From a virus (taxonomy: Duplodnaviria; Caudoviricetes), in IMG/VR virus record IMGVR_UViG_3300032144_000013, positions 1 through 53,944 of that record: a stretch of 53,944 nt of DNA; one strand, given 5' to 3'. This document shows positions 1,046 to 48,661 of this stretch, piece by piece (the first letter of the stretch is position 1; each line of letters begins with the position of its first letter). The notes under the pieces were generated by a model. That model ran no database searches. It saw only the letters and a program-made list of their open reading frames with translations, and was not told the origin of the DNA. A program made the position numbers and the translations under genes.

Positions 1046-1369
1046 TCATCGGTTCTGTTTCGCTGAATTGCACGTTGCACACGCGCACTGGTGGTTGTCC
1101 TCGTCGTTGAACCACCGCTGATACTCCTCGCTGCCTACTGGCCCTTTGGTGCTCGGTGCCACCTTGTGGTCGATGTGAATGTCTGTGCTGTTCGCTGGCA
1201 GCAATCCCTTGCAGATACCGCAGTACGGTCCGTCTCGTTGGATCAGTGCGTAGATGCGTACCTTGCGAGTCTTCTGCCACTGCCATGTGTAGCCGCGTTG
1301 GTTGCTGCTGGCCCTGCGTTCTGGCCGCTTGGTCCTGCGTGGCCGTAGGGTCTTAGGTGCGGTTGGCAT
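1046..1369 (-). CDS. Terminase-associated HNH endonuclease (HK97 gp74-like)
   Basis: SSNQRGYTWQWQKTR...CGIC...IDHK...NHQCACATCNSAK; typical position upstream of terS. Confidence 0.88.
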   Translation of the reverse strand: MPTAPKTLRPRRTKRPERRASSNQRGYTWQWQKTRKVRIYALIQRDGPYCGICKGLLPANSTDIHIDHKVAPSTKGPVGSEEYQRWFNDEDNHQCACATCNSAKQNR

Positions 1370-1658
1370 TGCACATCGCGTTCAGTTCTGCCGTGAACCG
1401 TGGGGGAACCAGGAAGCTGCCATCTGGCTGCACTCCCGAGTCGAACCCGCAACGGTGGCACACCACGTCCGGAGTGAGGCCATCGCATTCCCAGCACTTC
1501 CGCTCCCACTTCTCTCCCCATTTGTTGCTGATGGGCGAATACCCAACGCTGGTAATCCGTGCCCAGAATCCGCGCATGGTGATCTTGGGCTTCGCCTTCA
1601 ACCCACACGCCGCAGCCACACCTGTGATTGCCGCCTTGATTGCGTTGCGTCGGTTCAT
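1353..1658 (-). CDS. Small protein with twin-arginine-like N-terminus and capsid-like C-terminal motif
   Basis: MNRRNAIKAAITGVAAACG start; DGSFLVPPRFTAEL near the end; ATGA-coupled to the upstream ORF. Confidence 0.65.
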   Translation of the reverse strand: MNRRNAIKAAITGVAAACGLKAKPKITMRGFWARITSVGYSPISNKWGEKWERKCWECDGLTPDVVCHRCGFDSGVQPDGSFLVPPRFTAELNAMCNANRT

Positions 1659-1903
1659 GACAGTCGCTCCAGAACTCGGAGTTCGTTGATCGACAGCATT
1701 CCGCGATTAATCGCCTCGTTGTGCATCCTGATCGCCGCCGTCATACGTCGTATGGCTTCATTCGCACGCTGCATTCCTTCGATAATCTGCGACTCGTCCA
1801 CTCTCACGGCATCCACGAGAGAGCCGGTCTTGTCCATCCCACACGCCGCAGCGATTCCAGCCGCAGCCGCCTTCAGCATCGAGCGTCGGTTCATGCTGTC
1901 CAT
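1655..1903 (-). CDS. Small protein with twin-arginine-like N-terminus and portal-like C-terminal motif
   Basis: MNRRSMLKAAAAGIAAACG; ends AINRGMLSINELRVLERLS; TGATG coupling at 1903. Confidence 0.65.
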   Translation of the reverse strand: MDSMNRRSMLKAAAAGIAAACGMDKTGSLVDAVRVDESQIIEGMQRANEAIRRMTAAIRMHNEAINRGMLSINELRVLERLS

Positions 1904-5242: not shown

Positions 5243-5566
5243 TTAGCGGAGTTTGTTGAACAGTTGCAGAACGGCCGCGTTCACGTTGTCCACGGATGCG
5301 TTGGTCGTCAGCTTCCCGAGCGCGCTGTTGATCTCCGCAAACGCCGATTTGCAGTCCGCACCGGTGTTCTCGAATCCGAAGTGCGCTGATGCACCCGCGA
5401 AGTGCGCGTTCTGCGAACCATCACCGTCGATCATCAGGTTCATGGCGTCGCGTTCGTCGATCAGCTCCTCAAGACCACGCTCCAGATTGTCGAGCGCCCT
5501 GCGCAACTTGAACCCGTGCGGCGTGCCCGCGTCGAATGCGTAGTGATTGTCGGCCATGTCATTCAA
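5243..5566 (-). CDS. Hypothetical helical protein
   Basis: Abuts both neighbours in the same operon. Confidence 0.6.
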   Translation of the reverse strand: MNDMADNHYAFDAGTPHGFKLRRALDNLERGLEELIDERDAMNLMIDGDGSQNAHFAGASAHFGFENTGADCKSAFAEINSALGKLTTNASVDNVNAAVLQLFNKLR

Positions 5567-7118
5567 TCTCCTGAACTGAACCGGTTAGCCAGTACCCGCA
5601 ACGCTTGGCCCGTACAGTCCACGCTCCAACCTCAATCTCGCCGCTCAGATCACACGGCGTGTAGACGAACAGCAGCGTCTGTGCGACACCGGGAATCTCA
5701 GTCTCCGTAGCGTACACCCGGTTCGCCGTCGCGTCGTTCAGCGGGCACGCGAGAACGCGAGTCGTGCCTTCCCGCCAGTAGCGGTTGATCGTCGGGTGAT
5801 CTGCGATGCGTTTCAGTTGCCGCAGCAACGCCAGTTCGTAGTCTTCCACCGTGGCGTTCGCGACGTCGGTCCGGCCGATGGACAGCAGGTACTCCGCAAC
5901 GTTCGGCTTGGGGGCCACGAGTATCTGAGTCGGCAGCGTGTTCGCGTTGTCCCACCAGACCAATCGCACTTCCTTGCCCGGTGACTGCATCCGCCACGCC
6001 ATCGCGGTGAAGAATCCCGCACACGACTCAGGATCGACGATGGCGTGCTGTTGGGACTGATGTCCGGCGATGACAGCAGGCGGAACGATATCGACGCTCA
6101 ACTCGCGCCACGCTGATGTCTGCCAGTCTGCCTGATAGCTCGCCAGTGCCTGCTCGTGTTGTGGGCTGGTGAGCAAAGAATCCGAGTACCACCCGAGGTA
6201 CAGAGCGATGCTGGCCGTCGTGTTCTGGTGATTCTCGTCGAAGCTGCCGTAGCCGACTGTTCGAAGTTTCCCACGCCAGCCGTCCGTCAGTTCCGCATCG
6301 AATGCCGCATACAGGGCGTGGTACAGGGCATTCTCTGCCGCGTGAAACTCGGATTCACAGTCCTCCGGTTTCCTGTTCCGACGCTCATCCACCCAATCGG
6401 CCAGTTGCAGCGACTTGCTCTCCAGGTTGGCACGCGGCAACCATGCCAGCGTCACGACCGTCACCCGCGTACCATCCGGCAACTTGACCTTCTCGGACTT
6501 CTCAGAGCACAGTTCCTTGAACTTGACCCGCTCGCCTTCGTTGTTCTCGCGAAGGATGATCTCGGTGGGACTCGGCACAATCTCCTGCAGCCGACGCATC
6601 CACGCTCCTGTCGCCCACAACCGGCCGCATTCCTGCCACTTGCACACTGGCCCCACGGGGTTCGGCTCGGGCGTCTGATCCAGAGTGCCATCAATCTTCC
6701 GCCGCACGCACAACACCGACTCCCGCCAGTTCTCTTCCGTCAGCACCATGCGCGGGATCGTGGCATCGATCTCGCCGGTGATGTTGTTCATCCGCAGCAC
6801 GATCGGCCCGTTGTTCATCCGCGACAACAGCGGAGCATTGCCGTTCAGGATGCCGATCTGCTTCGGAACCCCGTCAACGATCGCCCCGCCTTCCCGCAGT
6901 GCCGCGTTAATCATGCGGATGGACGGCTCGACCGGATAACCGGCGTCAATCTGGGCCTGCTGCCACTGGTAGCCGTGGCCGTCGATGTGCCAGATGGAGA
7001 ACAGCGGGCCAGCAGACGACTGGACTTCATCTCCAGCCGGCCAGCCGCCTCCGCCCAGAAAAGGACCGTCGGCGCTTGCCGTGGAGACCAGCAGCAGGGT
7101 GGCGAGGATGATTTTCAT
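5559..7118 (-). CDS. Secreted protein of unknown function (519 aa)
   Basis: True start MKIILATLLLVSTASA-DG is a Sec signal peptide with an ASA cleavage site; ATGA overlap with the upstream ORF. Confidence 0.7.
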   Translation of the reverse strand: MKIILATLLLVSTASADGPFLGGGGWPAGDEVQSSAGPLFSIWHIDGHGYQWQQAQIDAGYPVEPSIRMINAALREGGAIVDGVPKQIGILNGNAPLLSRMNNGPIVLRMNNITGEIDATIPRMVLTEENWRESVLCVRRKIDGTLDQTPEPNPVGPVCKWQECGRLWATGAWMRRLQEIVPSPTEIILRENNEGERVKFKELCSEKSEKVKLPDGTRVTVVTLAWLPRANLESKSLQLADWVDERRNRKPEDCESEFHAAENALYHALYAAFDAELTDGWRGKLRTVGYGSFDENHQNTTASIALYLGWYSDSLLTSPQHEQALASYQADWQTSAWRELSVDIVPPAVIAGHQSQQHAIVDPESCAGFFTAMAWRMQSPGKEVRLVWWDNANTLPTQILVAPKPNVAEYLLSIGRTDVANATVEDYELALLRQLKRIADHPTINRYWREGTTRVLACPLNDATANRVYATETEIPGVAQTLLFVYTPCDLSGEIEVGAWTVRAKRCGYWLTGSVQEIE

Positions 7119-7357
7119 GGTCGTCCGAAGTAGACCTTGAATGCGCCGACGTGCAGAGTCCAACCGCATGTCTTGTAGGTGGCGTCGGGCCATATCTCGG
7201 CTCTCCGCTCCGGCCAGCCATGCCAGCACAAATGAGCGTGGTTTCCACCAGAAGACCAGCCCACGCGAACAGGCCACCACCGATACATCACGGGACGGTC
7301 CGGTCTCCTCCAGCTCTTGAAGAAGCCACGGAAGTCCCACAAAGGTTTTCTGCTCAC
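7115..7357 (-). CDS. Trp/Arg-rich hypothetical protein
   Basis: Stop overlaps the start at 7118. Confidence 0.45.
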   Translation of the reverse strand: MSRKPLWDFRGFFKSWRRPDRPVMYRWWPVRVGWSSGGNHAHLCWHGWPERRAEIWPDATYKTCGWTLHVGAFKVYFGRP

Positions 7358-8280: not shown

Positions 8281-9012
8281 TCATCGCCGGCAGTTCGGGC
8301 AATAGGACGACTGAGACTGAATCCGAACCACCGGTGTCTGAATCGCCAGTTCCCGATACCCGCCGGCCGGTCCCGTCGGATTGCCGTTCGCGTCAACGTA
8401 GTGCCGGCTTCCGAACCGGGCATTGCAGGTGCAGGGACCGCGCTTGGTCCCCTTGCGGATCTCTTCCACGCACAGGCAGGCTTCCGTGTCCGTTCCCTTG
8501 CAGCAGCAGACGTGAACTCCGTCCTGCCCCTGTGAAGCGACCTCGCGGGCGTCCGGCTGTGTCTCGAGCCATTCCCGCAACAGGTAGTCCAGTCTCTTCC
8601 CGTTCAGAGTCTGGAGGCCGCGCAATCGCATCCAGCCGTTCGATGAATTCCCGGACTGCCAGTAGAACCACGGGCCGTCGACCATCCAGTCCTCAAGAGG
8701 CCACTTGACCACCCGGAACGGCAGCGACGCTTCCCCGACCTTCTCAATCTCGGACAGCAGCGCGTCGCAGACCGAGCACGATTCGGGCGCGTACATGCGC
8801 ACGATTGGCCGGGAATCCTGCGCGTCAGAAGGTGGCACCGGGGCCGCGACTGGAGCGCCAACAGCCCCGGTGCCGGGGGAAATCGCATCCTGCGACGTAC
8901 TGCCGGAATCCGCCGGCAGAGATAGCGAGTCACCTCCTTCCAGAGACGGACGTGGAGACTCGAAACCCGTCAACAGCAGCAACGCGATGATTCCGGCGAT
9001 CGTGGTCTTCAT
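8281..9012 (-). CDS. Exported thioredoxin/glutaredoxin-like protein with Cys-rich C-terminus
   Basis: Signal peptide MKTTIAGIIALLLLTG; IVRMYAPESCSVC (CxxC); ends YCPNCRR. Confidence 0.6.
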   Translation of the reverse strand: MKTTIAGIIALLLLTGFESPRPSLEGGDSLSLPADSGSTSQDAISPGTGAVGAPVAAPVPPSDAQDSRPIVRMYAPESCSVCDALLSEIEKVGEASLPFRVVKWPLEDWMVDGPWFYWQSGNSSNGWMRLRGLQTLNGKRLDYLLREWLETQPDAREVASQGQDGVHVCCCKGTDTEACLCVEEIRKGTKRGPCTCNARFGSRHYVDANGNPTGPAGGYRELAIQTPVVRIQSQSSYCPNCRR

Positions 9013-9021
9013 GGGGAGTCC

Positions 9022-9771
9022 TCAAGCAGCAGTCGGAACGAGTACCGCATACGCCTCGCTGGGATCCGCCTTGCTGCCGGTGATGAATCCCCGGCCAGCC
9101 GTCCCCCAGGTCGTGTTCCACGAATTGTCGATCCAGTATCCGAGCTGGTTGTTCACCACGTCCGGCTCGACGGCGCACACCAGGTGCCCCCACCAGTCGA
9201 AGGCGACCGAGCAGGGAATGTCCCGGACCAGCAGGGTCATCACCGAGTAGAAGTCGTCGGGGATGTCCGCGAAGTCAGTGACGTTGAACGCCTTCCGGGC
9301 CTCGCGCGACTGCTCGTTGTCGTACCGCTTGTCAATCGCATGCTCGGGCCAGAGAGATTCCGGAGCGACGCCCCACTTCTTGATCCCGGCCAGGCACTCC
9401 CCGCCCCAGCCGCCGACGTTCTTGTAGTTCTTGATGAGGCAGGCCACGCTCGCCGGCGACAGCGATACGTGCTCCTCGCCCATCTGCAACCGGGTCAGTT
9501 CGAGCATCCGAATCGCTCCGAACGCCCAGCAGTAATTGGTCCCGTTCTGGTTCTTGATCCCGACGCCGTTCGCCTTGCTCCGCGCGATCAGTCCGATCCG
9601 GTTCGCCTTCCGGAAAGCGATCTGCTCTTTGAGTTCCGTCGCCGTCAGCGGGGTTCCCGTCCACGCGGCCGCGTACGGCAGCTTCCCGAACTCGACCGGG
9701 CGCGGCTCCAGTCCCTTTGAGAAACCGTCCGGCGCGGGAGGCGGATTGTTCGGGTCGATTACAAAGCTCAC
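9022..9771 (-). CDS. Papain-like (C1) cysteine peptidase
   Basis: Oxyanion Gln and catalytic Cys in NQNGTNYCWAFG, His in WWGHLVCAV, Asn in IDNSWNTTWG; GTG start at 9771 overlaps the upstream stop. Confidence 0.88.
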   Translation of the reverse strand: MSFVIDPNNPPPAPDGFSKGLEPRPVEFGKLPYAAAWTGTPLTATELKEQIAFRKANRIGLIARSKANGVGIKNQNGTNYCWAFGAIRMLELTRLQMGEEHVSLSPASVACLIKNYKNVGGWGGECLAGIKKWGVAPESLWPEHAIDKRYDNEQSREARKAFNVTDFADIPDDFYSVMTLLVRDIPCSVAFDWWGHLVCAVEPDVVNNQLGYWIDNSWNTTWGTAGRGFITGSKADPSEAYAVLVPTAA

Positions 9772-10214
9772 TTGAACCTCCCCATCAGGGCGATCGTCGC
9801 TTCGACGCCATCCGGCAGCGGCCCGGTGAATCCCTTTGTTCCGTGAGCGATGTGAATCCACGGCAGCGAATCGAACTTCAGCTTGAACGCTGCCGCTTCC
9901 GTCGCCGTCATCCCCGCCGTCGGCGTGTCCTTGTCGAACACCCGCAGGTGAGCATTGTTCGCCTTCGCCCAATCACGCACGTCCTGCGAGGTCAGCGCCG
10001 CGAAGTGACCGCGCGACAGTTCCCCACGCATCCGGGTCTCGGTCTCTTCGATGATGACCACCGTCAGTCCTTCAGACGGAAACGGCGCACCATCGACGAC
10101 AACCGGGTCCGGCTTGGGATCCGGCTTCGGGTCGGGAGTCGGCGGTTTCCCCCCGGCCAGTGCCAGGAACAGCACCAGCGCCACAACGATCAGCGACTTG
10201 GCGTCAATTTGCAT
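9768..10214 (-). CDS. Membrane-anchored protein with Pro-rich linker
   Basis: N-terminal TM followed by KPPTPDPKPDPKPDP and a globular domain. Confidence 0.7.
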   Translation of the reverse strand: MQIDAKSLIVVALVLFLALAGGKPPTPDPKPDPKPDPVVVDGAPFPSEGLTVVIIEETETRMRGELSRGHFAALTSQDVRDWAKANNAHLRVFDKDTPTAGMTATEAAAFKLKFDSLPWIHIAHGTKGFTGPLPDGVEATIALMGRFK

Positions 10215-20960: not shown

Positions 20961-21632
20961 TCATCGGTACTCCAACGGTTCGCAGCTTCCACACCTCGGC
21001 GCTGTTGTAATTGCCAGCTCCGGATCCCAGCCCTTTCTCAGGCGAGCCCGAATCGTCGCCCGATTGACTCCGGTCTCCTCGGACCACTCCGTGAGACACT
21101 TCGTTGCCCCGAATGCTGTGATCCGAACGGTGTTCCTTCTGTTGACGCTCTGCTCTCCGATTGTCGCCCAGCGGCAATTGTTCGGCTCGTAGTTGCCGTT
21201 CACGTCGATGCGGTCAATTGAGTGCTGTAGAGACGGGCGTGGCCCCATGTCCTCGACAAAGTTCTCGAATGATTCGTCCCACCTTTGGCACACGGTTATT
21301 CCCCGTCCACCGTAGTAGCGGTACGCCTTGCTCTTTGGATCTCGGCACCGCTGGCGCATCGACCGCCACGGCCAATACGACGTCGATGATTCGCGCCTGT
21401 CCTCTTCCGCCTTTGTTCGCTTTCGGTTCCGATCTGCAAGTACCTCTCGCGCCAAGCAGCCGCAACTTTGGGTTTTTCCGTTTCGCAAGTGCGTCGCTAT
21501 GGACATTGCGACTTGACCGCAGTCGCAATCGCACTTCCAAACCACGGACCGTCGTTCTCGATTCTCAGTCGGACCGACGACCACGAGCCTGCCGAACCTC
21601 TGGCCGGTGATGTCCTTTGCGTTCTGGTGCAT
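20961..21632 (-). CDS. HNH-type homing endonuclease-like protein (YGGRGI family)
   Basis: GQRFGRL...WKCDCDCG...YYGGRGITVCQRW...SIDRIDVNGNYEPNNCRWAT. Confidence 0.85.
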   Translation of the reverse strand: MHQNAKDITGQRFGRLVVVGPTENRERRSVVWKCDCDCGQVAMSIATHLRNGKTQSCGCLAREVLADRNRKRTKAEEDRRESSTSYWPWRSMRQRCRDPKSKAYRYYGGRGITVCQRWDESFENFVEDMGPRPSLQHSIDRIDVNGNYEPNNCRWATIGEQSVNRRNTVRITAFGATKCLTEWSEETGVNRATIRARLRKGWDPELAITTAPRCGSCEPLEYR

Positions 21633-27380: not shown

Positions 27381-28127
27381 TCATGGCGTCACCTCGCGCC
27401 ACTGCTCCTCCGTCCCGCGCGTGAACTTCTGCTCGATCCTTCGTGGCTTCGGCAGGTCCACGAAGCCGCACCATGTCTTTGTCCAAGTTGTGCCGTCAGA
27501 AGCGACGATGGTCTCTCGGTGCATGTCCGTCGCGACCCACGGCTCCTCCAGCGGGCCGATGTATCGCACGAGGTCTTCTGTGCACGGCCCGCTGGTTGGG
27601 TACCAACCGTCTTCTTTCCACGTTCGACCAGAGCCGTGGACGGTCCCGTTCCACCAGTCGCGAGTTCCAGCGAGACGCGAGTTGACAGTCGCCCGCCTCC
27701 CATCCCGCGTCTCGTACACGCCCGGCCCGTGCTCGCTGATGGAGAACGGCTTGGGAATCGGGCTGGCGATGTAGAAAGGCTCCTCACGCGGGTACTTGGC
27801 GTCGAATTCAACGGCGGTCAAACCAACGTGCTCCGGTGCATCAAAGCAAAGCCACCCGCCTCGATTTCCGATGATCTTGTCCTCCCTGCGGTACTTATGG
27901 GTCTCTCTGTCGGCCAACTGAAAGCCTTCCGGTGGAGTCGGCGGGTCGGGAGGCTTTGGACCCTTGATGTCCGCGTAGTACGGCGAATAGCCGTCCTCAC
28001 ACTCCCACACACCTCCTGCGCCATCCGAGTAGAACCCGAACGCCCACCCGCCTTCGATGTGAACGACTCGGCACGGAAGGCCGTTCGTGTCCACGTACTC
28101 ACCGAGGCTCGGAATTATGTTGCTCAT
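27381..28127 (-). CDS. Hypothetical protein
   Basis: 248 aa, ATGA-coupled to csrA; PGVYETRDGRRA motif. Confidence 0.6.
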   Translation of the reverse strand: MSNIIPSLGEYVDTNGLPCRVVHIEGGWAFGFYSDGAGGVWECEDGYSPYYADIKGPKPPDPPTPPEGFQLADRETHKYRREDKIIGNRGGWLCFDAPEHVGLTAVEFDAKYPREEPFYIASPIPKPFSISEHGPGVYETRDGRRATVNSRLAGTRDWWNGTVHGSGRTWKEDGWYPTSGPCTEDLVRYIGPLEEPWVATDMHRETIVASDGTTWTKTWCGFVDLPKPRRIEQKFTRGTEEQWREVTP

Positions 28128-28321
28128 GCTCGCGCCTCCCCTCCCAAATCGAATTCGTCCGGCTCGTCGTCACGCGGAATCAACTCGCTCCGCACGATGT
28201 TCACGCTGCGGTCGGCTTCCACGCCGACACGCACGTATCCGTCCTTCGATTTCAGAATCGTGAACCGCGCCGGTCCATCGACTTCGATTGACGTTCCCAC
28301 TGTGCGTCCAAGACAAAGCAT
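28124..28321 (-). CDS. csrA: CsrA/RsmA-family RNA-binding regulator
   Basis: MLCLGRTVGTSIEVDGPARFTILKSKDGYVRVGVEADRSVNIVRSEL matches the CsrA pattern (ML.L.R..GE.I...VR.G..AP..V.I.R.E), with the Arg44-equivalent retained; GGAGG RBS. Confidence 0.85.
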   Translation of the reverse strand: MLCLGRTVGTSIEVDGPARFTILKSKDGYVRVGVEADRSVNIVRSELIPRDDEPDEFDLGGEARA

Positions 28322-28337
28322 CGTTTCCTCCCTGGTT

Positions 28338-28392
28338 AAAAAACCCGGCGCTACGGACATCCGTTTCTGTGCGTCCATGTTGCCGCGCCGGG
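28338..28392 (-). terminator. Terminator/attenuator hairpin in the csrA leader containing two ANGGA motifs
   Basis: CCCGGCGC...AUGGA...ACGGA...GCGCCGGG followed by UUUUUU. Confidence 0.65.
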
Positions 28393-28403
28393 CTGCTCCT
28401 ACG

Positions 28404-28607
28404 TCAGCCGACAATCGTTGCTTCCTGAATGCACACCCTCAGTTCACCGCGAGACGCCCCGTAGTTGCGGGACACGTGGTACACCTTGCCATCAACTCGC
28501 GCAGTGACGCTGCCCTGCATCCTCAGCATCAATCGCTCCTCCACGTCCATTAGCTGCGCCCGGAGTGCGACGTGCTTGCCGACCAGATCCAAAAATTCCG
28601 TGTCCAT
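28404..28607 (-). CDS. Hypothetical protein
   Basis: GGGGAG RBS, MDTEFLDLVGKH. Confidence 0.55.
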   Translation of the reverse strand: MDTEFLDLVGKHVALRAQLMDVEERLMLRMQGSVTARVDGKVYHVSRNYGASRGELRVCIQEATIVG

Positions 28608-29823: not shown

Positions 29824-30591
29824 CTACAGCAGTCCTAGATCTCGGTTCGTGCAAGCGTGCTCGCCGAACAACTCGATTGCCTTCTTGTCGTATGCTCGCG
29901 CCGCTTCAACCTCCGTCGCGAACCGGCCCACGTGCACCTGCTTCCGGTCAACAGTGATCGTCACCTTGAACGGTCGTGGACCGCGCTTTTCGCGGTACAC
30001 GCCCTTGAACGGGGATGACGCACCCCCTTCACGAATAACCTTCGCCGCGTTCCTGCCGTTTTCTCCCGACGTGACAACCCGAAGATTCTGTCTGCGGTTG
30101 TTCAGCCTGTTCCTGTCGCGGTGGTCGGTTTCCATGCCAGTTGGAGTTTTTGCGATTAGTCGGTGCATCGCGCCAGCGGATGCAGACCATGCGTACCCAG
30201 TCGGCGACAAGTACCACGAATGCTCCGCAACCAGGGGAGCGTCCTCGGCGTCGCACAGCGCGCATTCAGACGTGTTTCCGAGAGGAACCTTCGCAATGCC
30301 GTTCACGATGACTACCGCCGTCGTGTTCTTGCGAATCAGGTTGCATCTCCGGCAGTCGAGAGGATTGCCGTTTAGGTGTCTCACGTGCTCGCCCTTGCTG
30401 GTTTCGAGAATGAAACCGGGGAGCCGCGCGTACCCGCCCTTCCTGTCCGACGCCGATGTCTGAACGAATCTTTTTCCGTTCGCCGACGTTGCCACCCGCC
30501 AACGCATGCTCGACACTGACGGCAGATCGACAGCATCGACGATGATTTTCTCACCGCCAATTGCGGTGACTTCGGCAACCGCCTGTTGCAT
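29824..30591 (-). CDS. HNH-AP2 domain endonuclease
   Basis: Two HNH-like units (HLNGNPLDCRRCNL; DHRDRNRLNNRRQNLR) and C-terminal AP2 (FKGV...VGRFATEVEAARAYDKKA..LFGEHACTN). Confidence 0.85.
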   Translation of the reverse strand: MQQAVAEVTAIGGEKIIVDAVDLPSVSSMRWRVATSANGKRFVQTSASDRKGGYARLPGFILETSKGEHVRHLNGNPLDCRRCNLIRKNTTAVVIVNGIAKVPLGNTSECALCDAEDAPLVAEHSWYLSPTGYAWSASAGAMHRLIAKTPTGMETDHRDRNRLNNRRQNLRVVTSGENGRNAAKVIREGGASSPFKGVYREKRGPRPFKVTITVDRKQVHVGRFATEVEAARAYDKKAIELFGEHACTNRDLGLL

Positions 30592-30734
30592 GGAACGTCT
30601 CCGTCGCACATCCGACGGGTCGCTCAAGAATGAGCAAAGCGTCGGCGATCTCCTGAGTTCGTCATCGGGTCTCACGCCGATTCGGAACTCACCAAAAGTC
30701 AAAGCCGCGTATCAGGCCAGCCCCGACACGCGGC

Positions 30735-31419: not shown

Positions 31420-31647
31420 GTCCTTACCGTGTAAGAGTTTACGGCGTTGAGTGAGGCGCGCTAACCCTGAGTGGAGGCGCAAAGGTGGATGACTGTTGCT
31501 GCTGCGTAGGCGGTAACGGGTGCTGCGTCGGTATTTTTCCGATGCGCCGTATCGGGTGGATTTCTTCGGCACTGGAGGCTCGCAAATGCGATTTAACAAA
31601 TGTCTCAATCTCACCTCGCTGCACGCCGGGCCACATCGGGCGTTCGC

Positions 31648-32592
31648 ATGCAAGATGCCTTCGACGGCACAGCCGCGCGCCGTCTCAATGCGCGGACCTG
31701 TTTCGACACGCTCTACAAGCTGTGGGCACCAGACCTGGCCCCACGCACGGAGCGCCGCTACAGGCATGAGCTGAACCGATGGGAAAAGCTCACCAACGAT
31801 CCGCCGTTGTCCGAGATTTCGACAACGCTCTATCAGCAGTTCCGGGCATCCTCTTCCCAGCTCGGACACGCTGCCGGCACAACCGAATCGACCCTGAGAT
31901 TCATCCGGCAACTGATGCGCTGTGCCCTCGCGCACGGGGCCATCAACGTCATCCCCGATCGGGGCCGCGCCCGGCGCATTGACGCTCCACAGCCGCACCC
32001 GCCGTCGATCGACGAACTCGACCGAATGTTCCGGGTCTGCGAGGTGGCGCGCTGGCCGCGACTCCACGTTCCCACGAAAATATTCTGGCGAAGCTGGATG
32101 GCCGTGGCACTATGGACGGCACTGCGCCGCGAGGACATTTTCTGGCGGTTGGCACTGGAGCACATCGACTTCAAGGAAAGCCGCATCCTGTTCCGGGCGC
32201 ACAAGAGCAGCGTCCCGCATACGTTCCCCTTGAACGAGATCGTCACCCGCCACATTCGGGCAATGGTCCCCACATTCTCCCACAACACCCGCCGCGTGCT
32301 GTTCAACCCGTCGCGAAGTCCGCACCTGATTCAGCGCGAGCTTGACCGGATGGCAGACGCTGCTGAAGTGCGCAGGATCACCCCGCAGAACTTCCGGCAG
32401 GCGGGAATCAATATGTGGACGATTGCCGATCCCAGGGCCGGAGAAGTCATCCACGGCGTCGGAATCCCCCGCGTCCTGAGCCACTACCTCGACCGGCTCC
32501 AGATTTTGAAGAACGCCGCCGACAACGTGATTGTCCCCGCGTCAATGACGGAGTTTGGCTCTGGTCGCCGGCAGGGGACGCTGTTCGATTGA
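31648..32592 (+). CDS. int: Tyrosine recombinase/integrase
   Basis: TALRREDI (R), HKS (K), PQNFRQ (HxxR variant), IHG, SHY (Tyr); N-terminal core-binding-like helices; start could be 31600. Confidence 0.85.
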   Translation: MQDAFDGTAARRLNARTCFDTLYKLWAPDLAPRTERRYRHELNRWEKLTNDPPLSEISTTLYQQFRASSSQLGHAAGTTESTLRFIRQLMRCALAHGAINVIPDRGRARRIDAPQPHPPSIDELDRMFRVCEVARWPRLHVPTKIFWRSWMAVALWTALRREDIFWRLALEHIDFKESRILFRAHKSSVPHTFPLNEIVTRHIRAMVPTFSHNTRRVLFNPSRSPHLIQRELDRMADAAEVRRITPQNFRQAGINMWTIADPRAGEVIHGVGIPRVLSHYLDRLQILKNAADNVIVPASMTEFGSGRRQGTLFD

Positions 32593-32715: not shown

Positions 32716-33849
32716 ATGAAGCGTTCTGGCTTCACGATGATTGAAATGCTCGTTGTGCTCTCGATCATCCTGCTGCTGTTCGGCCTGACAATGACCGTCA
32801 TTACGGCGTCGATGGACAACGCCAGGGCCGACGCGACGCGAACGACGGTCAGCTACATCGACAAGGCGATCGAGGACCGCATCGAAGCGCTGGGTCGGAA
32901 CAATGTCCGATCACACGCCCGCGCGTTCATGGTGGCGTATAACGTAATCAACGCGGACAAGATCGACGAACCGCTGGCTCGCGTCATTGTCACCAAAGAC
33001 CGATTCCAGCAGGCGCTGCCGACCCGATTGGAGGATATGTTCGGTCTCGACGGCACTCCGGGGACTCAGGACGACAGCCCGCTCTGGAGAGTCTGGAAGA
33101 AGACGATGAACGCGAATGGCATCGTCACCACTGACGCCGACATCCGGCCGACCGGGCACATCCGGGAGAACGAGAACGCCGAACTGCTCTATCTGTTTCT
33201 GACTGAAGGCGCGACCTACGGAGAGATACGGTTCCGCAGCGACGACATTATCACGCGGCACCTACGGGATTCGCCGATCGACACTGACGGCAACGGGTCG
33301 TTCGACAGACCCGGCAACGGAATCCCCGAGATCATCGACGAGTGGGGCAACCGGATCCGGTTCTACGGCTGGACTCACAAGCTCACGCGGCCAGGTGGCG
33401 GAACTACGGACATCAATCAGCCGCTGTTCACGGCAACGGCTGGACACATGCTGAACACGATCAACCCTCCGGCGTCCCCAGTGCCGTTCACGATGACCGG
33501 CCACATGGACAGTCCGCTGAATCAGGATCCAGACGACCCGTACGGGCGGCTCTCTGCCGCACAGAACTCAACCGGCTTCGCGTCTGCCCCGTACCAGATT
33601 CGCCTGCCGTCAGGTGCAGTCGTGACGTGCAAGGCGTTCAACGAGGACAACTATCACCCTCTCGACACGTACAGCATTCCGCTTGTTGTGTCGGCTGGAC
33701 CGGACGGAGTTCTCGGTCTGGTAGAGCCGACCGGCTTTGATCCGATGACCGGAAACTATGACGCGGACCTGCGCACGGCCGAACCGCTTGGGTATCGTGC
33801 TGCGTGGCGCACGGACGCTGTCTACGACAACATCACGGCGCACAACTAG
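32716..33849 (+). CDS. Prepilin-type N-terminal cleavage/methylation domain protein (type IV pilin/pseudopilin-like)
   Basis: MKRSG/FTMIEMLVVLSIILLLFGL class III signal; EIIDEWGNRIRFY and PLVVSAGPDG motifs; TTGACA at 32648 upstream. Confidence 0.88.
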   Translation: MKRSGFTMIEMLVVLSIILLLFGLTMTVITASMDNARADATRTTVSYIDKAIEDRIEALGRNNVRSHARAFMVAYNVINADKIDEPLARVIVTKDRFQQALPTRLEDMFGLDGTPGTQDDSPLWRVWKKTMNANGIVTTDADIRPTGHIRENENAELLYLFLTEGATYGEIRFRSDDIITRHLRDSPIDTDGNGSFDRPGNGIPEIIDEWGNRIRFYGWTHKLTRPGGGTTDINQPLFTATAGHMLNTINPPASPVPFTMTGHMDSPLNQDPDDPYGRLSAAQNSTGFASAPYQIRLPSGAVVTCKAFNEDNYHPLDTYSIPLVVSAGPDGVLGLVEPTGFDPMTGNYDADLRTAEPLGYRAAWRTDAVYDNITAHN

Positions 33850-34583
33850 CCGGACATCCCGCGCAGTCTGGTCGGAATCTCCTTGCTTCCCGAAATCACG
33901 TCAGTCTCCAAAGTTCCATCGGGACCAACGACGTACATCATCGGCGTGGCGAACTTCCCGTACCTGAGCGAGATTTCCCACTGCTTCTGCATGACGATCG
34001 GGAACGTCAGTCCGAGCTTTTCCGCCTTCGCGACAGTCGCCGCTGCGTCTCTCCGGCTAATCATCAGCACCTTGACGCCGCGCTCATGCGCCGCCTGCAC
34101 CTCGGGCACCACGGCATCGCACGGACCGCAGTTCGGGTCTGAGAACACCAGAACCAACCGCTCCCCGGCATAGTCAGCCAGTGCAACTTCCGCACTTCCG
34201 TTTGCCAGCGGGAGCTTGAACCCCGGCGCGACGGTTCCGGACTTGAGTCCGTTGCGCTCGATTTTGCTTCGCGCGAGCGATGGATCTGGCTGCTTTCCTT
34301 CCGGGACTTCTTCCCGCTTTTTTTTAGCGGCAGCGACGGCTGATTCCGCCTTCATACGCTTCAGAGACACGAGCGGCAGCGTGACGACCTCCACCCGCTC
34401 GCCGTTGAAGAACGTACCGAAATCGTCGTGACAGTCCGGGCAATGCCACTTGCCAATGATGAATCCGCCACTGTCCGAGGTCTTGGACGCAACCATCTTC
34501 GGTTTCATGTACTGCATGTTCGGGTGCTGGCACACCTCCACAACGCCATCGACGGTTTCCATCTCTTCGGTTTGCATGTCCAT
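33846..34583 (-). CDS. Redoxin (TlpA/MauD-like thioredoxin fold)
   Basis: GLKSGTVAPGFKLP...LVLVFSDPNCGPC...ATPMMYVVGPDG. Confidence 0.85.
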   Translation of the reverse strand: MDMQTEEMETVDGVVEVCQHPNMQYMKPKMVASKTSDSGGFIIGKWHCPDCHDDFGTFFNGERVEVVTLPLVSLKRMKAESAVAAAKKKREEVPEGKQPDPSLARSKIERNGLKSGTVAPGFKLPLANGSAEVALADYAGERLVLVFSDPNCGPCDAVVPEVQAAHERGVKVLMISRRDAAATVAKAEKLGLTFPIVMQKQWEISLRYGKFATPMMYVVGPDGTLETDVISGSKEIPTRLRGMSG

Positions 34584-41570: not shown

Positions 41571-42218
41571 TCACGCCTCCACTGGTTGCTGTGCACGACC
41601 GGGAACCAATGCCCCGAGGTCAATCCGTCGGAAGTGCCCACACCGCACGTTGCCATGCGCCACGATGCGACACCCCGCGTCCTTCGCGCGACGGCAGAAG
41701 TCCACGTCGTCGCTGGTTGACTCGAAATGCCCGTCTTCGTTGAGCCAGCTCGGCCACTGGAACCACGCACCCGGATTGCCGACTCGCCCGAACACGTCAC
41801 GTTGAATCAGCATGCAGCCCGTCGCCACACGGTCCGCCTCAATCACCCCGTCGAACCACTGGCGCACCCAGTCGCCGTCCACTCGCACGGCAATCGATGG
41901 AACGATCCGCCGCCCTTGTTCAGCGAGGAACACGTAGCAGCCACCAGCAATGTCTGCGTCGGCTTCAACCAGGCGCGTAATCGTGTCCGGTGGAATGCAC
42001 ACGTCGTCATCAATGAACAGCAGGTGCGTGCAGTCGCTCGCCAGGAACGTCGCCACGACACGATTGCGTCCGATTGCCACGCCGTACCGCTCGATGCACC
42101 GCGTGTAGCGACACTCGATGCCTTGCGCCTCAGCCTGCTGCATCGCGGACGTAACGGCGTCCTTGACCTCGTCCTGCAAGGCCGTGTCGCGTGTCAGGAT
42201 GGCACACAGGACATTCAC
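41571..42218 (-). CDS. Glycosyltransferase (GT-A fold, GT2-like)
   Basis: GRNRVV...HLLFIDDD...ATGCMLIQRDVF...SDDVDFC...CGH. Confidence 0.85.
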   Translation of the reverse strand: MNVLCAILTRDTALQDEVKDAVTSAMQQAEAQGIECRYTRCIERYGVAIGRNRVVATFLASDCTHLLFIDDDVCIPPDTITRLVEADADIAGGCYVFLAEQGRRIVPSIAVRVDGDWVRQWFDGVIEADRVATGCMLIQRDVFGRVGNPGAWFQWPSWLNEDGHFESTSDDVDFCRRAKDAGCRIVAHGNVRCGHFRRIDLGALVPGRAQQPVEA

Positions 42219-43167: not shown

Positions 43168-44358
43168 CTAAATCTCCTGCTTCTTGCGGGTGCAGTGACC
43201 CGCCCGCGCGTGCTTGTTCCACCACTCCGTGATGTGGCGATGGACCGGCTTCATTTCTTCGTCGTATTCCGACACGACCAACTCCAGGTGTCCAATGCGC
43301 ACATCAGGCGCGACATAGACGGAATGACCGGCAGCCTTCCACTTGTCCCAGAACGTGATGTCGTCGTCCCGTCGGCCCTCGCCCCACTCCCCGTTCGCGT
43401 CAGGGACGGCGTGCAGCCACGGTTTCGGCATGTCCGCGAGACATTTCACCCGCAGCAGCGTCAGGCCGAAGTGCGCGGTATCAACACGCACCGGATCCCA
43501 CGTCACTTCCGCCTCGCGCTTGCCGGCGATCCCCATGAGCGGGGTTTCCGCGCCGCGACGCATTTGCAGAGCTGCTATTGCGTCGATATCTTGGCGCTGC
43601 GCGAGGATTCTCAGAAGCCGCTCGACATGACACGGGAGAATCATCGAGTCGTAGTCGAGCGTCAGCAGCCAATCGATCCCCTCTGCCAGTGCCCGCTGGA
43701 AACCAGCCTGAATGTTCTGGCCCCAGAAGCATCCGGTATGCGTCTCGATCGGGATGCCGTGTGCGTGCAGGGCTTCGGTGATTGACAGCCATGCGTCGTT
43801 CCATCCGACGCGAGGCAGACCCATCGTCGCGCGCACCTTGACGTCCACAGACGTCGCTGCAGGACGCTCCCCCTTGTCGGCCTCCAGGTTCAGGCTGATG
43901 GCGTCGAACGACGCGAGGTCCGTGTTCTGACTGGACCAGTGCCGGACGTCGTGGAAGCCGAATGTCTCCAAGTAGCCACGCAGGCGATTCTCGTCCCACG
44001 CCGACTTGTGGAAATCGTCGGCGTCAGTCTGGCCCCCCATCAGGTAGTACGCCCACTTCGGATCGGACTCTGTCAGGAATGCCACCTTCCGCACGTCAGG
44101 AACGCTGATCCGCAGCCTCCCACCGGGACGAAGCACACGCCGCCACTCTTCCAGCGCCTTCAGCACCTCCGCAAACGACAGGTGCTCCAGCATGTGGACG
44201 CAGCGGATTTCCTCGACGCTGTTGTCCGCATAAGCGAGCGGGTACGCTTCCGTTCCGAGCTTGCGATCGATCGCCGTGAAACCGGGAATGACCGTATCGC
44301 CCGCACCGATGTTGAGGCGGATCAGTCCGTCGGCAGGAGGTGAAAGCGTGTCATGCAT
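43168..44358 (-). CDS. SAM-dependent methyltransferase fused to a GT-A glycosyltransferase
   Basis: RLNIGAG...HMLEH...RVLRPGG N-terminus; LTLDYD...HFGLTLLR...DDDITFW...IGH C-terminus. Confidence 0.82.
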   Translation of the reverse strand: MHDTLSPPADGLIRLNIGAGDTVIPGFTAIDRKLGTEAYPLAYADNSVEEIRCVHMLEHLSFAEVLKALEEWRRVLRPGGRLRISVPDVRKVAFLTESDPKWAYYLMGGQTDADDFHKSAWDENRLRGYLETFGFHDVRHWSSQNTDLASFDAISLNLEADKGERPAATSVDVKVRATMGLPRVGWNDAWLSITEALHAHGIPIETHTGCFWGQNIQAGFQRALAEGIDWLLTLDYDSMILPCHVERLLRILAQRQDIDAIAALQMRRGAETPLMGIAGKREAEVTWDPVRVDTAHFGLTLLRVKCLADMPKPWLHAVPDANGEWGEGRRDDDITFWDKWKAAGHSVYVAPDVRIGHLELVVSEYDEEMKPVHRHITEWWNKHARAGHCTRKKQEI

Positions 44359-44464
44359 GAGAGTTGATCCGCATAGTGAGCCGCGCACGGATGTAAGCGG
44401 GACGACAATTGATCCCACGGGTGCGGCTCAATGCTCCGTGGTCGCCTGCCGCCCGCATTCCGCA

Positions 44465-45132: not shown

Positions 45133-46634
45133 TACGTGCCTGTTGCCAAGCCGACAATCGGGCCGACCGCAGACGCAGTACCGCAGCCATGCACGTTGAC
45201 GTCGAATCGTTCGGTGCCGCGCACCGCAATCTGGTTGCGCTCGAACACCGACTGACCGCCAATGGTGGCGTGCTCGCTGAAACTGATGCTGGTCTGCTGG
45301 CGGTCGCCGAACAGGGCGCCAAGGGCGAAGTTGCCCAGCACCGCCGTCACACCAGTCGTCGCCGTTGCGTTCGGGAATACCTGGCTGAACTCGACCGGGT
45401 AGCCCAGGAACAGCGGTCGCGGCCGTCGGTCTCCGTTGGACACCTCCATCGCGGTCACGCCGCCGGACGCCAGTTCCAGCTTCTGCATGACTTCGGCGAA
45501 ATAGGTCTTGTGACAGACCCACACCGCGCCGTTGTCAGCGTAGACCGGCAACTTGCCGACAACCGCGTGGAAGTCCGCGAGCACCTGCGCGGACCAGGTG
45601 TTCGACGTGCCCTGAATCTTCAGGCCCGCCGAATCCGTGCCCGCGCCGTCGATGCTGGTCAACAGGTTGCGAACACCCTGAATGCCGCCATAGGTGCTGG
45701 TCCCGTCACCGTTGAAACCGCACTGGTCTTCCTTCTCGGAAAACGCATAGGCGATCTCTCCGGCCAGCGCGTCACCGATGTTGATAACGGCATCGGCGCT
45801 AAGCTGGTTCGTCATGCGGGCCAGCACCATCAGGTCCTTCGCCGACAACTGCACGTCGTCCCAAGTCATGTTCGACTCGGTTCCAGCGTCGCTTTCGTTG
45901 ACGAAATACGCCGTCAGACCAGCGGACCTGCGCGGCTCGTGCTTGATGTCGCTCGTCATCGCCACGCTGCCGAACAGCCGGCGCACAAGGCCGTACTGCT
46001 CGCGCAGGTCGATGAGGTCGCGGCTGAACTCGTCGGGAACGAGGTAGTGCCCGCCGGTCGTCACGTCGGTCTCACCGTGCGCGACGTTCACCGGGTTCAT
46101 GTAGTTCTCAACGAACTGCTTGCTGTAGGCGAAGTTGTAGCGCCCCGGCAGGTCTTGCGAGACACGCGCCAGAACCCACTGCCCGAAGCGATAGGCCCGG
46201 TGCTCAGCGTCCAGACCATCGCGCGGCTTGCCGTTCGTGTCGCGGAAGTTCTGAAGGGCACCGGACCGCCGCACGTTGCGGGGGATCTTGAACCGGATCG
46301 TCGGTTCGCCGTCCTGGTTCTCGGTCTCGATTGGCAGGCCATTGCGAGCTGAGGGAGCCGGGGTTCCGGCGGTCGGCTGCGTGCGTCGGGCCTGCACCTT
46401 CGGGGTCATCGCCTCCGCGCGGTCGGCGCGGGCGTTCTTCATGGCGATGTCTTCCTCCAACTGCTCCTTCTGCTTCTGGAGCTCCTCGAACAGCGCCTTG
46501 AGATTGGCGTACTGCGTGCGCTGTTCATCGCTGAACGCGCCGTCGTTTTCGAGATTCGCCTGACGCTCGATCTCCGCCTGGTCGGCGTCGATCTTCTTCA
46601 TGCGTGCGATGAGTTCAGCGAGCTGCTTGTCCAT
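45132..46634 (-). CDS. Major capsid protein, HK97 fold with delta domain
   Basis: Coiled-coil N-terminus, GGHYLVPDEF, FNGDGT, LFLGYPV, GNF, FERNQIAVRGTERFD. Confidence 0.95.
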   Translation of the reverse strand: MDKQLAELIARMKKIDADQAEIERQANLENDGAFSDEQRTQYANLKALFEELQKQKEQLEEDIAMKNARADRAEAMTPKVQARRTQPTAGTPAPSARNGLPIETENQDGEPTIRFKIPRNVRRSGALQNFRDTNGKPRDGLDAEHRAYRFGQWVLARVSQDLPGRYNFAYSKQFVENYMNPVNVAHGETDVTTGGHYLVPDEFSRDLIDLREQYGLVRRLFGSVAMTSDIKHEPRRSAGLTAYFVNESDAGTESNMTWDDVQLSAKDLMVLARMTNQLSADAVINIGDALAGEIAYAFSEKEDQCGFNGDGTSTYGGIQGVRNLLTSIDGAGTDSAGLKIQGTSNTWSAQVLADFHAVVGKLPVYADNGAVWVCHKTYFAEVMQKLELASGGVTAMEVSNGDRRPRPLFLGYPVEFSQVFPNATATTGVTAVLGNFALGALFGDRQQTSISFSEHATIGGQSVFERNQIAVRGTERFDVNVHGCGTASAVGPIVGLATGT

Positions 46635-47000: not shown

Positions 47001-47394
47001 CTTCGATCTCCAGTTCTGCCGCCACGGCAACCGCGACTTCCAGTTCCGGTGCGACTTCCTCACAAACGACTTCGGCGACAGGCACCGCACCGTCGAATCC
47101 CGGAACGATCTTGTCGGCTGTCAGCGCCAGCGCCTGAGTGCCCAGCCAGTCGTTGACGTGCCCAACCGCGTTCCGCTCGCGTTCGGAGAATGAATCGCCA
47201 CGACTGAACCGAAGCCGCAGCGCCACGTCGTCGGCCGCTGTATCTCCCATTGCCGCGCGAACGTATTCCACAACGCCAGCGTGCCACTCTTCGGCCACTG
47301 AGAAGTCGCCGAATGATGCCTGACCGCCTCCGCAGGCCGCGTCACCATCGCGTGCCAGCGCCAGCAACCCGTCGCGCACTTCCTGAACAGTCAT
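46975..47394 (-). CDS. Hypothetical acidic protein
   Basis: ATGA-coupled to the epimerase. Confidence 0.55.
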   Translation of the reverse strand: MTVQEVRDGLLALARDGDAACGGGQASFGDFSVAEEWHAGVVEYVRAAMGDTAADDVALRLRFSRGDSFSERERNAVGHVNDWLGTQALALTADKIVPGFDGAVPVAEVVCEEVAPELEVAVAVAAELEIEDGDTGPRD

Positions 47395-48446
47395 GCCACC
47401 TCCCTTTGCTGTTGTGCTTCGACGATCTCCGCGACCGTCTGTTCCAATGAATACTCCTGCCGCCAGTTCGGATAAGCCGCCTCAAACTTCCGCGTGTCCG
47501 TGATCCACCATTTGTGGTCGCCCATGCGCGGCTCTGCGACGTGCTCCAGAGTCATCTTCCGACCCGACAGCCGCTCCGCCATCGCAATCGCCTCCAGCAC
47601 GCTACAGGACCGCTCAGGACCGCCGCCGATGTTGTAGACCGCTCCCGGCGTCGGGTTGTTCACGTACTCCACGAACGCCCGCACGAGGTCGCTGGCGTGG
47701 ATGTTGTCGCGCACCTGCTTCCCGCCGTAGCCGATGACCTTGTACTGCGTCCCGTTCACGACGCACTTGCACAGGTACGACAGGAACCCGTGTTGCTCGA
47801 CGCCCGCGTGTCCCGGTCCCGTCAGGCACCCGCCCCGGAAACAGACGGTGTTCATGCCGAAGTAGCGGCCGTACTCCTGCACGTAGACGTCTGCGGCGAG
47901 TTTTGAGCAGCCGAATAGGGAATGGGTGCACTGGTCGATAGGTGTCAACTCGTCGAAGCCATGTGGAAACGATGGCACGTCAAATCGCGTCTCGTGGACA
48001 TGCATCGCTAACTGGTTCGGCCAGTCGCCGTAGACCTTGTTCGTGGAGCAGTGGACGAACGCTGCATGAGGGCACCATGCGCGCGTCATTTCCAGCATGT
48101 TCAGCGTGCCAGTCGCGTTTACGTGGAAGTCTGCGGTTGGGGCCGTGGCCGCCCAGTCATGCGAAGGTTGCGCCGCCGTGTGAATCACAGCCTCTATTTG
48201 GTCTCCATATCCCGCGAACATGTGCGAGTAACGGTCCGGTTCCCTTATGTCCGCTTGCACATGCCAATATCCGGGGCACAATCCGTGAAGGACTGCGGAG
48301 GTGTTGTCCGTGCACCCGCCCTCCCCGAAGAATTGGCGGCGACAGTTGTTGTCAATCCCGACAACGCGATACCCCAGCGCCGCGAACTGCCGCACCGCTT
48401 CCGATCCCACAAGCCCGGCGCTGCCGGTGACGATGACGGTTTTCAT
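47391..48446 (-). CDS. NAD-dependent sugar epimerase/dehydratase (CDP-paratose 2-epimerase-like)
   Basis: VTGSAGLVG, HTAAQPSHD, STNKVYGD, FGCSK, GKQVRDNIH, YNIGGG. Confidence 0.9.
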   Translation of the reverse strand: MKTVIVTGSAGLVGSEAVRQFAALGYRVVGIDNNCRRQFFGEGGCTDNTSAVLHGLCPGYWHVQADIREPDRYSHMFAGYGDQIEAVIHTAAQPSHDWAATAPTADFHVNATGTLNMLEMTRAWCPHAAFVHCSTNKVYGDWPNQLAMHVHETRFDVPSFPHGFDELTPIDQCTHSLFGCSKLAADVYVQEYGRYFGMNTVCFRGGCLTGPGHAGVEQHGFLSYLCKCVVNGTQYKVIGYGGKQVRDNIHASDLVRAFVEYVNNPTPGAVYNIGGGPERSCSVLEAIAMAERLSGRKMTLEHVAEPRMGDHKWWITDTRKFEAAYPNWRQEYSLEQTVAEIVEAQQQREVA

Positions 48447-48661
48447 GCTCGCTGTGCTCCGCAACCACGACAACGACCGTTCTCTGGTTCGCCACTGCTG
48501 CCGCAGAACAAGCAATCTCCGGACGGCTGCACCGGTGCGTTTCTGTCGTTCAGAATCACCACGCGACACCCGGTGCCGCTGTACGTGGCTTCCCATTCCC
48601 TCCGCAGTCTGTCGCGTGCTTCTCGCGACATTGGCGGCAGCGTCGGAACCGGCATCCCCAT
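48443..48661 (-). CDS. Microprotein with a portal-like segment and a Zn ribbon
   Basis: MSREARDRLRREWEATYSG...VVILND then CLFCG...CRGCGA; ATGA-coupled to the epimerase. Confidence 0.65.
   Translation of the reverse strand: MGMPVPTLPPMSREARDRLRREWEATYSGTGCRVVILNDRNAPVQPSGDCLFCGSSGEPENGRCRGCGAQRA

Follow-up and report, generated by a model that had tools for sequence, protein, structure and literature searches.

The complete virus record IMGVR_UViG_3300032144_000013 carries, at positions 1353-1903, two short tandem open reading frames (ORFs) that begin alike and then diverge, which raises the question of what kind of protein a phage would build in this way. The window analysed here is the whole of this record, 53,944 bases long, and nearly all of its genes lie on the minus strand. 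An earlier note had described the two frames, ORF B and the downstream ORF A, as a common "RR leader" fused to a portal-like and a capsid-like end, respectively, and had seen in them, together with a third small frame (ORF C), a set of structural mimics acting as anti-defence decoys. All strings quoted in that note are present and both ORFs lie at the positions it gave, on the minus strand. We arrive at another reading of their function, to which we tentatively assign a probability of about 0.38: the pair would encode exported or lipid-anchored modular conflict proteins, the cargo of which is built from captured virion-gene segments.

The nature of the cargo emerges from profile comparisons across a family of related proteins. 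These comparisons identify several tail types as brief stretches with homology to the best conserved parts of HK97-type portals, and a further tail type as a putative zinc ribbon followed by a strand-helix that weakly resembles the N-arm of the capsid protein.

A family of small modular proteins with a common leader

Judged from their sequence, both ORFs represent genuine genes, coupled in translation, for small proteins of three parts (leader, linker and C-terminal module), because their third-position G+C content is coding-like (0.52/0.54/0.74 over the three codon positions of ORF A and 0.59/0.46/0.67 over those of ORF B), stops and starts overlap along the row, and relatives with 32-59% identity all retain four cysteines and several residues of the tail. 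The stop of the upstream HNH endonuclease gene overlaps the ATG of ORF B, the ORF B stop overlaps the ORF A start (ATGA), and the end of ORF A overlaps the start of the next HNH gene; a GGAG lies about 10 nt 5' of the ORF A ATG.

As queries, ORF B retrieved itself alone and ORF A three relatives. Profile searches, one covering 1.84 billion representatives and the next 5.8 billion proteins, brought the family to 17 proteins, the relatives all residing on short metagenomic contigs and all 17 reading frames being intact. Pfam, PHROGs, NCBIfam and PADLOC all lack the family; the last contains defence models, not anti-defence ones, and matched none of 16 proteins. Nor did either ORF have a tblastn match in 50,697 phage records. 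The leader is carried by 16 of the 17 members and is nearly invariant. What follows it is a mosaic, with at least three linker types that recur with different tails and at least four tail types. Seven members, ORF A included, end in a putative Cys4 zinc ribbon (C55, C58, C67 and C70 are invariant in all seven, and Pfam zinc-ribbon matches are all under cut-off), followed by an invariant D-G-x-x-L-x-P-x-R-F (D79, G80, L83, P85, R87 and F88).

Structure models of moderate confidence (mean predicted local distance difference test score, pLDDT, 65 for ORF A and 75 for ORF B) place a helix in both leaders. The ORF A model combines a zinc-ribbon-like core (pLDDT 74-83) with a C-terminal helix, and the ORF B model consists of helices at residues 3-17 (the leader), 34-63 (long) and 69-78 (short), the latter two joined by a turn. 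Fold searches with both models returned nothing at E<=0.001, zinc-ribbon proteins being reached by ORF A only at E>2. A protein atlas search gave low-score leads only, to lipoprotein, zinc-ribbon and Lpp-like alanine-zipper clusters.

The duplication of the leader, followed by divergence, was correctly seen by the earlier note and exceeds chance. Both copies begin M-N-R-R, continue with an Ala/Gly-rich stretch and end A-A-A-C-G. Among the 5641 ORFs of the window and of 57 loci related through the large terminase (TerL), a hidden Markov model (HMM) of the leader matched ORF A and ORF B only (E 4e-14 and 1e-12; next match 1.2), and no extra copy was found elsewhere in the window or in these loci. 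DNA similarity between the two leaders starts at the ATG, with none 5' of it. Twelve of the identical residues have more than one possible codon, and at 10 of them both leaders use the same one (P 0.0035 under the codon usage of the phage); such sharing points to recent common ancestry or gene conversion.

Several features of the leader suggest what it is. The motif N-R-R-[NSD]-[AM]-[IL]-[KRL] is present in all 16 leader-bearing members, and the general form is N-R-R-x-hydrophobic-hydrophobic-K, then an Ala/Gly-rich core and, in both window copies, a lipobox-like A-A-A-C. Nine of the 16 (ORF A, ORF B and seven relatives) end in A-A-A-C-G and the other seven in A-A-V followed by Trp and basic residues. 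The Kyte-Doolittle maxima of the two leaders, 1.34 and 1.07, stay below the level of a membrane-spanning helix, as expected of a signal peptide core. The Pfam TAT_signal model (PF10518), which describes twin-arginine translocation (Tat) signals, scored ORF B at 23.4-23.5 bits against a gathering score of 22.7, or at 22.6 if the protein is begun at MNRR; the best relative, P0018, reached 22.2 bits, and 10 of the 17 family proteins matched at E<=10. We infer that the leader reads best as a predicted export or lipidation signal, with the N-R-R motif, the weakly hydrophobic Ala/Gly core and the small residues before Cys all recalling Tat signal peptides and Tat lipoprotein precursors (PF10518, TIGR01409). 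The "RR leader" of the earlier note is thus indeed shared by both ORFs, and its probable identity can be given as a signal peptide of the Tat type carrying a lipobox-like Cys. A DNA pattern for host proteins with a similar N-terminus had no match in three Planctomycetota genomes, the pattern being too strict to inform.

Portal-like and capsid-like tails

Inside this genome alone the resemblance of the two tails to head proteins is marginal. Whole-protein Smith-Waterman comparisons with 84 window proteins were not significant (50/200 and 183/200 shuffles reached the best score), and the pre-chosen 16- and 18-mers, which score best on capsid and portal, were equalled by 12/200 and 24/200 shuffles.

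At the level of the family and of profiles, the portal likeness appears both significant and specific. An HMM of the tails of ORF B and P0010, searched against the 5641 ORFs, retrieved portals as essentially all of its top matches, at the homologous place (best E-values 1e-6, 5e-6 and 6e-4). Conversely, a portal HMM built from 37 portals gave ORF B 6.0 bits, P0010 9.4, P0011 10.9 and P0015 13.1, scores reached by none of 1000 shuffles in each case; shuffles reached the scores of P0014, P0017 and P0018 in 1, 9 and 18 of 1000 cases, respectively. There was no signal for P0013, P0016 and P0007, and the seven zinc-ribbon members were negative against this HMM (182/1000 shuffles or worse). Aligned with hhalign, the ORF B group (A6) matched 15 portals over 27 columns (P 7.7e-5; residues 367-393 of the window portal), the cross-control against capsid proteins being negative (0.25). 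The tails of the ORF B type keep the invariant G, S, N, R and E of the portal at equal spacing. The portal-type tail therefore passes comparison with HMM and shuffles (0/1000 and P 7.7e-5 for ORF B), and the recurrence of such cargo among leader-sharing homologues, which the earlier note had proposed looking for, is seen in at least five relatives, P0010, P0011, P0014 and P0015 among them.

The family uses two portal segments, one at the end of the Pfam domain, where ORF B-type tails align to its last ~30 positions, and one in a conserved stretch near residues 278-297 of the window portal. ORF C, which has no leader, carries a third (portal HMM 10.7 bits, 0/1000 shuffles). An unbiased scan of the 65 window ORFs of up to 200 amino acids against the portal HMM ranked ORF C first and ORF B second. 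Phage_portal (PF04860) was the top match among 24,736 Pfam models for both P0010 (E 0.011) and ORF C (E 0.052). Both stayed below its threshold of 39.1 bits, P0010 with 15.4 bits over profile positions 289-320 and ORF C with 13.2 bits over positions 170-200, and ORF B had no match in Pfam to this family. By these scores P0010, ORF C and ORF B are taken as pieces and not as portals. By frame reading, the stop of ORF C overlaps the likely ATG of an epimerase gene.

The tail of ORF B is not closest to the portal of its own genome. It is identical at 10/15 positions to the portal of L011, a viral contig close by TerL (84%), and at 5/15 to its own, and the tail HMM scored the window portal at 0.7 bits versus 12.5-25.8 for the others. 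A complex prediction combining portal residues 1-420 with ORF B residues 20-79 gave a score of 0.00 run without controls, a result that has no bearing on whether the two bind.

The capsid likeness of ORF A is weaker. An HMM of ORF A-type tails matches capsid proteins where their mature domain begins, with a best E-value of 0.037, and hhalign of the ORF A group (A3) against an alignment of the major capsid protein (MCP) gave P 6.3e-4 and 28% probability at MCP residues 188-213, with a portal control of 0.81. Against a capsid HMM, five of the seven zinc-ribbon members align at identical capsid positions with scores that at most 3/1000 shuffles reached (1/1000 for ORF A), all scores being 5 bits or lower. 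The Pfam capsid family PF05065 (cut-off 24.2 bits), to the first positions of which these tails align, matched none of the 17 proteins at E<=10. Among the 1.84 billion representatives, no capsid protein reached E 0.001 for the ORF A profile, and the sole match outside the family was a WG-repeat protein sharing the core D-G-S-F-x-I-P-P-R-F. In the scan of 65 ORFs, ORF A ranked first against the capsid HMM (1/300), chance producing ~0.4 ORFs per HMM at such a level; its signal therefore rests on recurrence in the family and not on this genome. The capsid likeness thus appears weak and not capsid-specific, the motif also resembling a generic WG-repeat hairpin. In sum, of the capsid- and portal-like ends described by the earlier note the portal one stands at profile level and the capsid one is weak (E 0.037 and the WG-repeat likeness); similarly, of the set of three structural mimics, the member at ORF C does hold a portal-like segment, and ORF A is again the weak one.

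Compared with genuine portals (PF04860) and capsid proteins (PF05065), all of these proteins share only 20-35 residues, and no member reaches a family threshold.

Genome setting

The ORF A/ORF B pair is flanked by three HNH endonuclease genes, one upstream and two downstream (Table 1). Taken as a circle, the record has the small terminase gene about 1.4 kb downstream of the pair. The 54 kb genome holds five HNH genes, the others being at 20961-21632 and 29824-30702 (minus); phrog_374 is common to the genes at 1903-2769 and 20961-21632. The unassigned genes around the pair, encoding proteins of 471 and 524 amino acids, gave no useful phage matches. A spanin or lysis-cassette lipoprotein was considered for the pair and rejected, given that the neighbours are HNH genes and that no lysis family was found among 86 ORFs compared with PHROGs. 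The small ORFs with membrane helices sit at 10-12 kb, away from ORF A and ORF B.

Table 1. Positions of ORF A, ORF B, ORF C, their parts and the genes discussed with them in the window.
Feature	Positions	Strand	Remarks
ORF B (P0001), 82 amino acids	1655-1903	minus	alternative start giving MNRR at 1894
ORF B leader, predicted twin-arginine-type signal peptide	1838-1894	minus	lipobox-like AAAC-G end
ORF B C-terminal helix-turn-helix, portal-like module	1658-1762	minus	G-x-x-S-x-N-x-x-R-x-x-E
ORF A (P0002), 101 amino acids	1353-1658	minus	
ORF A leader	1602-1658	minus	paralogous to ORF B leader
ORF A putative Cys4 zinc-ribbon core	1449-1496	minus	C55, C58, C67, C70
ORF A tail	1365-1442	minus	residues 73-98; weakly like start of mature MCP (N-arm)
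ORF C, 72 amino acids, without leader	48443-48661	minus	portal-like residues 11-37 (48551-48631), then C-terminal CxxC...CxxC
HNH endonuclease gene upstream of ORF B	1903-2769	minus	phrog_374, E 9.6e-64
Small HNH endonuclease gene downstream of ORF A	1046-1369	minus	overlaps ORF A end; phrog_589/144, E about 3e-10
Large HNH endonuclease gene	1-1080	minus	leaves window start toward small terminase gene; Pfam HNH E 1.5e-8; phrog_1271 E 9.8e-23
Small terminase	53480-53908		PHROGs and Pfam
Large terminase (TerL)	51870-53678		PHROGs and Pfam
Portal, 676 amino acids	49664-51694	minus	Pfam domain residues 42-388; motif compared with ORF B, residues 372-389 (50528-50581)
Head maturation protease	48927-49667		PHROGs and Pfam
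Major capsid protein (MCP), 500 amino acids	45132-46634	minus	Pfam domain from residue 195; motif compared with ORF A, residues 192-207 (46014-46061)
Integrase	31600-32592	plus	PHROGs/Pfam

Connector and tail genes, recognized by PHROGs and Pfam, extend to about 34 kb, and the same libraries identified excisionase-like, repressor-like, Erf, exonuclease, replication initiator, RusA and methyltransferase genes. The phage is read as temperate on account of its integrase, excisionase-like and repressor-like genes, and its tail is probably long and non-contractile. TerL is less than 40% identical to anything among the 50,697 phage records. Its nearest relatives in bacterial genomes belong to Planctomycetota assemblies (L001, 44%, and also L005 and L006), and the host probably belongs to the Planctomycetota; TatC and Lgt are both encoded in all three Planctomycetota genomes carrying these relatives, which counts in favour of the export reading of the leader. 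Among sequencing runs, one DNA run, which may be the source sample, was listed as containing the stretch, and no RNA run was. The records of L001, L005, L006, L011 and L012 contain no family member (0/5).

Other genes merit mention. The portal has an extension of ~290 residues past the end of its Pfam domain that matches no family, and the N-terminal ~190 residues of the MCP are probably a fused scaffold (delta-like) domain. Interspersed in the head and connector genes on the minus strand are genes for a glycosyltransferase-like, a methyltransferase-like and an NAD-dependent sugar epimerase protein (41571-42218, 43168-44418 and 47391-48446), which may indicate that glycans on the virion or on the surface of the host are modified. 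A gene for a 377-amino acid protein with a prepilin-type N-terminal methylation motif (32716-33849, plus) adjoins the integrase on the minority strand and is probably a lysogenic-conversion gene, and a thioredoxin-fold AhpC/TSA-like protein is encoded at the distal end of the tail module (33846-34583, minus). Further minus-strand genes encode a papain-family (Peptidase_C1) protein (9022-9972), two proteins with Sec-type N-terminal hydrophobic stretches (8281-9012 and 5559-7340), a 59-amino acid product with two hydrophobic stretches, from the interval separating the large terminase gene from the portal gene (51691-51870), and a CsrA-like regulator in the early region (28124-28414).

Candidate functions and their competitors

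As exported or lipid-anchored conflict proteins, the family members would be sent by their leader to or across the cytoplasmic membrane via Tat or Sec, would receive a lipid anchor where the Cys is present and would then act at the envelope. The virion-like pieces would have been captured from head genes and retained as small folding or binding units, and the conserved leader DNA could double as a homology handle for the exchange of cargo cassettes in an HNH-rich recombination hot spot. The likeliest role would be an accessory one in phage-versus-phage or phage-versus-host conflict, of the superinfection-exclusion type, a cytoplasmic decoy being less likely. The HNH genes on both sides and the genes of a temperate phage support the character of a conflict locus.

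Known systems offer partial parallels. Conserved-leader, variable-cargo families such as polymorphic toxins and bacteriocin or peptide precursors are analogous in their invariant trafficking N-terminus, recombining C-termini and tandem paralogues; unlike in those families, no toxin, immunity or processing genes were recognized near ORF A and ORF B, and the cargo appears virion-derived. Small phage lipoproteins of superinfection exclusion include T5 Llp and Cor. Another, Ltp of Streptococcus phage TP-J34, is described as a host-surface lipoprotein involved in superinfection exclusion (PMC3952083). The resemblance to Ltp lies in small size, predicted export as a lipoprotein of a temperate phage and a helical cargo, whereas the differences are the absence of a sequence match, a location in the late packaging region and not beside the immunity genes, and a portal- or capsid-like cargo.

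A number of observations weigh against export as conflict proteins. The leader of ~18 residues is short compared with typical Tat signals, and the lipobox position -3 is Ala where the consensus has Leu, Val or Ile. ORF A reaches only 12.1 bits against TAT_signal and, like most relatives, stays under the gathering score; NCBIfam TIGR01409 gives both ORFs 13.5 bits, below its cut-off of 16.7; and the lipobox Cys is missing in 7 of the 16 leader-bearing members. Conservation is usually poor in signal peptides but is highest, within this family, in the leader and well above that of the cargo, a hint that its sequence itself matters. Since portal and capsid stay out of the periplasm, export would give portal- and capsid-like modules no obvious use, and a Cys4 zinc ribbon would be unusual outside the cytoplasm. 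ORF C is portal-like but leaderless, and virion-like pieces are therefore not tied to export. Pfam, PHROGs and NCBIfam scans gave no sequence match to known superinfection-exclusion families, and no genomic context of the relatives was recovered from viral, genome or metagenome contigs. Given the conservation of the leader and the apparently virion-derived cargo, export alone is an insufficient explanation.

Four other explanations compete with export. That the proteins remain inside the cell, possibly tethered to the membrane, and mimic head-assembly elements strikes us as somewhat unlikely. Their tails would occupy the sites of the portal C-terminal helix-turn-helix or of the capsid N-arm, the outcome being either docking in the own procapsid, as an internal or ejection protein or an assembly regulator, or dominant-negative poisoning of rival heads. 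The genes do stand in the late operon directly upstream of HNH-TerS-TerL-portal-protease, with overlapping stops and starts, the tails retain exactly the residues that are invariant in the portal, and the closer likeness of the ORF B tail to the L011 portal than to its own fits an action on other phages; moreover, the capsid N-arm is a flexible element beside the maturation cleavage site (PMC10275583), and ORF C is portal-like without a leader. Such mimicry has to reckon with a leader that resembles an export signal, with the use of three different portal segments, which is odd if a single interface is imitated, and with the weakness of the capsid likeness. A related model, which we deem unlikely, keeps the leader in play: combinatorial virion-epitope miniproteins would present copies of 20-35 portal or capsid residues on a common leader, swapped as cassettes, and would compete for a partner that is tethered or removed at the membrane. 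This partner could be the assembling head of a rival phage, affected in a dominant-negative manner while the own portal has diverged, or a host sensor of short motifs.

The decoy model of the earlier note, in which conserved capsid and portal epitopes are shown to host immune sensors and block them, seems very unlikely. The copied pieces are the most conserved portal and capsid segments, those that sensors would be expected to read, and the variety of cargo is like that of an arms-race locus. Lit and CapRel detect the capsid protein via short sequence motifs (PMC13581612), so that a short capsid segment can be a biologically read feature; these are, however, host sensors of the real capsid, and an accurate copy of the motif that sets such a sensor off should activate it and not block it. 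The same paper names Avs4 and Avs11 as portal sensors and has Avs proteins recognize folds over extended interfaces (PMC13581612), which a piece of 20-35 residues could not mimic. Of the premise that CapRel senses the capsid protein and Avs2 the portal, the former holds and the latter fails, Avs2 sensing the large terminase (PMC13601566, PMC11564622). Predicted export would also take the proteins away from capsid and portal sensors, which act in the cytoplasm. None of the defence-related libraries gave a match, and searches of the open literature, read as listings, showed neither a phage-encoded peptide copy acting on Lit or CapRel nor a described portal or capsid decoy.

Two explanations deny the tails a virion-specific function. 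Breaks and repair at an HNH hot spot could have joined remnants of head genes in frame to a small leader-bearing gene, the pieces being functionless even if the ORFs are perhaps expressed. The flanking HNH genes, among five in the genome, agree with such debris, as do the nature of the captured pieces, conserved stretches in which diverged phage genomes still recombine, and the location of ORF C, in a stretch rich in insertions that separates the protease gene from the capsid gene. We nevertheless hold this for quite unlikely, considering that all reading frames of the family are intact, that relatives of such low overall identity keep tail residues unchanged, and that ORF B, P0010, P0014 and P0015 have tails with little in common besides the positions invariant in the portal, which suggests continued constraint. 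Alternatively, the resemblances could be generic, a helix-turn-helix-like pattern in ORF B and a common beta-hairpin motif in ORF A. Here the WG-repeat match with its shared core, the lack of capsid proteins at E 0.001, the second Pfam match of P0010 (a winged-helix family, E 0.026 versus 0.011 for Phage_portal) and the 1/300 of ORF A, about equal to the one top match expected among 65 ORFs, count in favour. For ORF B this explanation is largely refuted by the tail HMM search and hhalign: the top matches were all portals and none of the many helix-turn-helix proteins in the 5641-ORF set, the match spans 27-34 columns with flanking residues included, three portal segments recur across seven small proteins, and the cross-controls were negative. 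As an account of the whole it is very unlikely.

Should the tails indeed mimic portal or capsid elements, they would represent a new means for phages to disturb the assembly of rivals or the sensing by hosts, via short pieces of core virion proteins grafted onto a common leader that can be exchanged. If they are ordinary exported proteins, the family would still stand out for its absence from libraries, its unusually conserved leader and the capture of head-gene segments in accessory genes. The family may also lend itself to testing Tat- or lipoprotein-type export in phages whose hosts are Planctomycetota.

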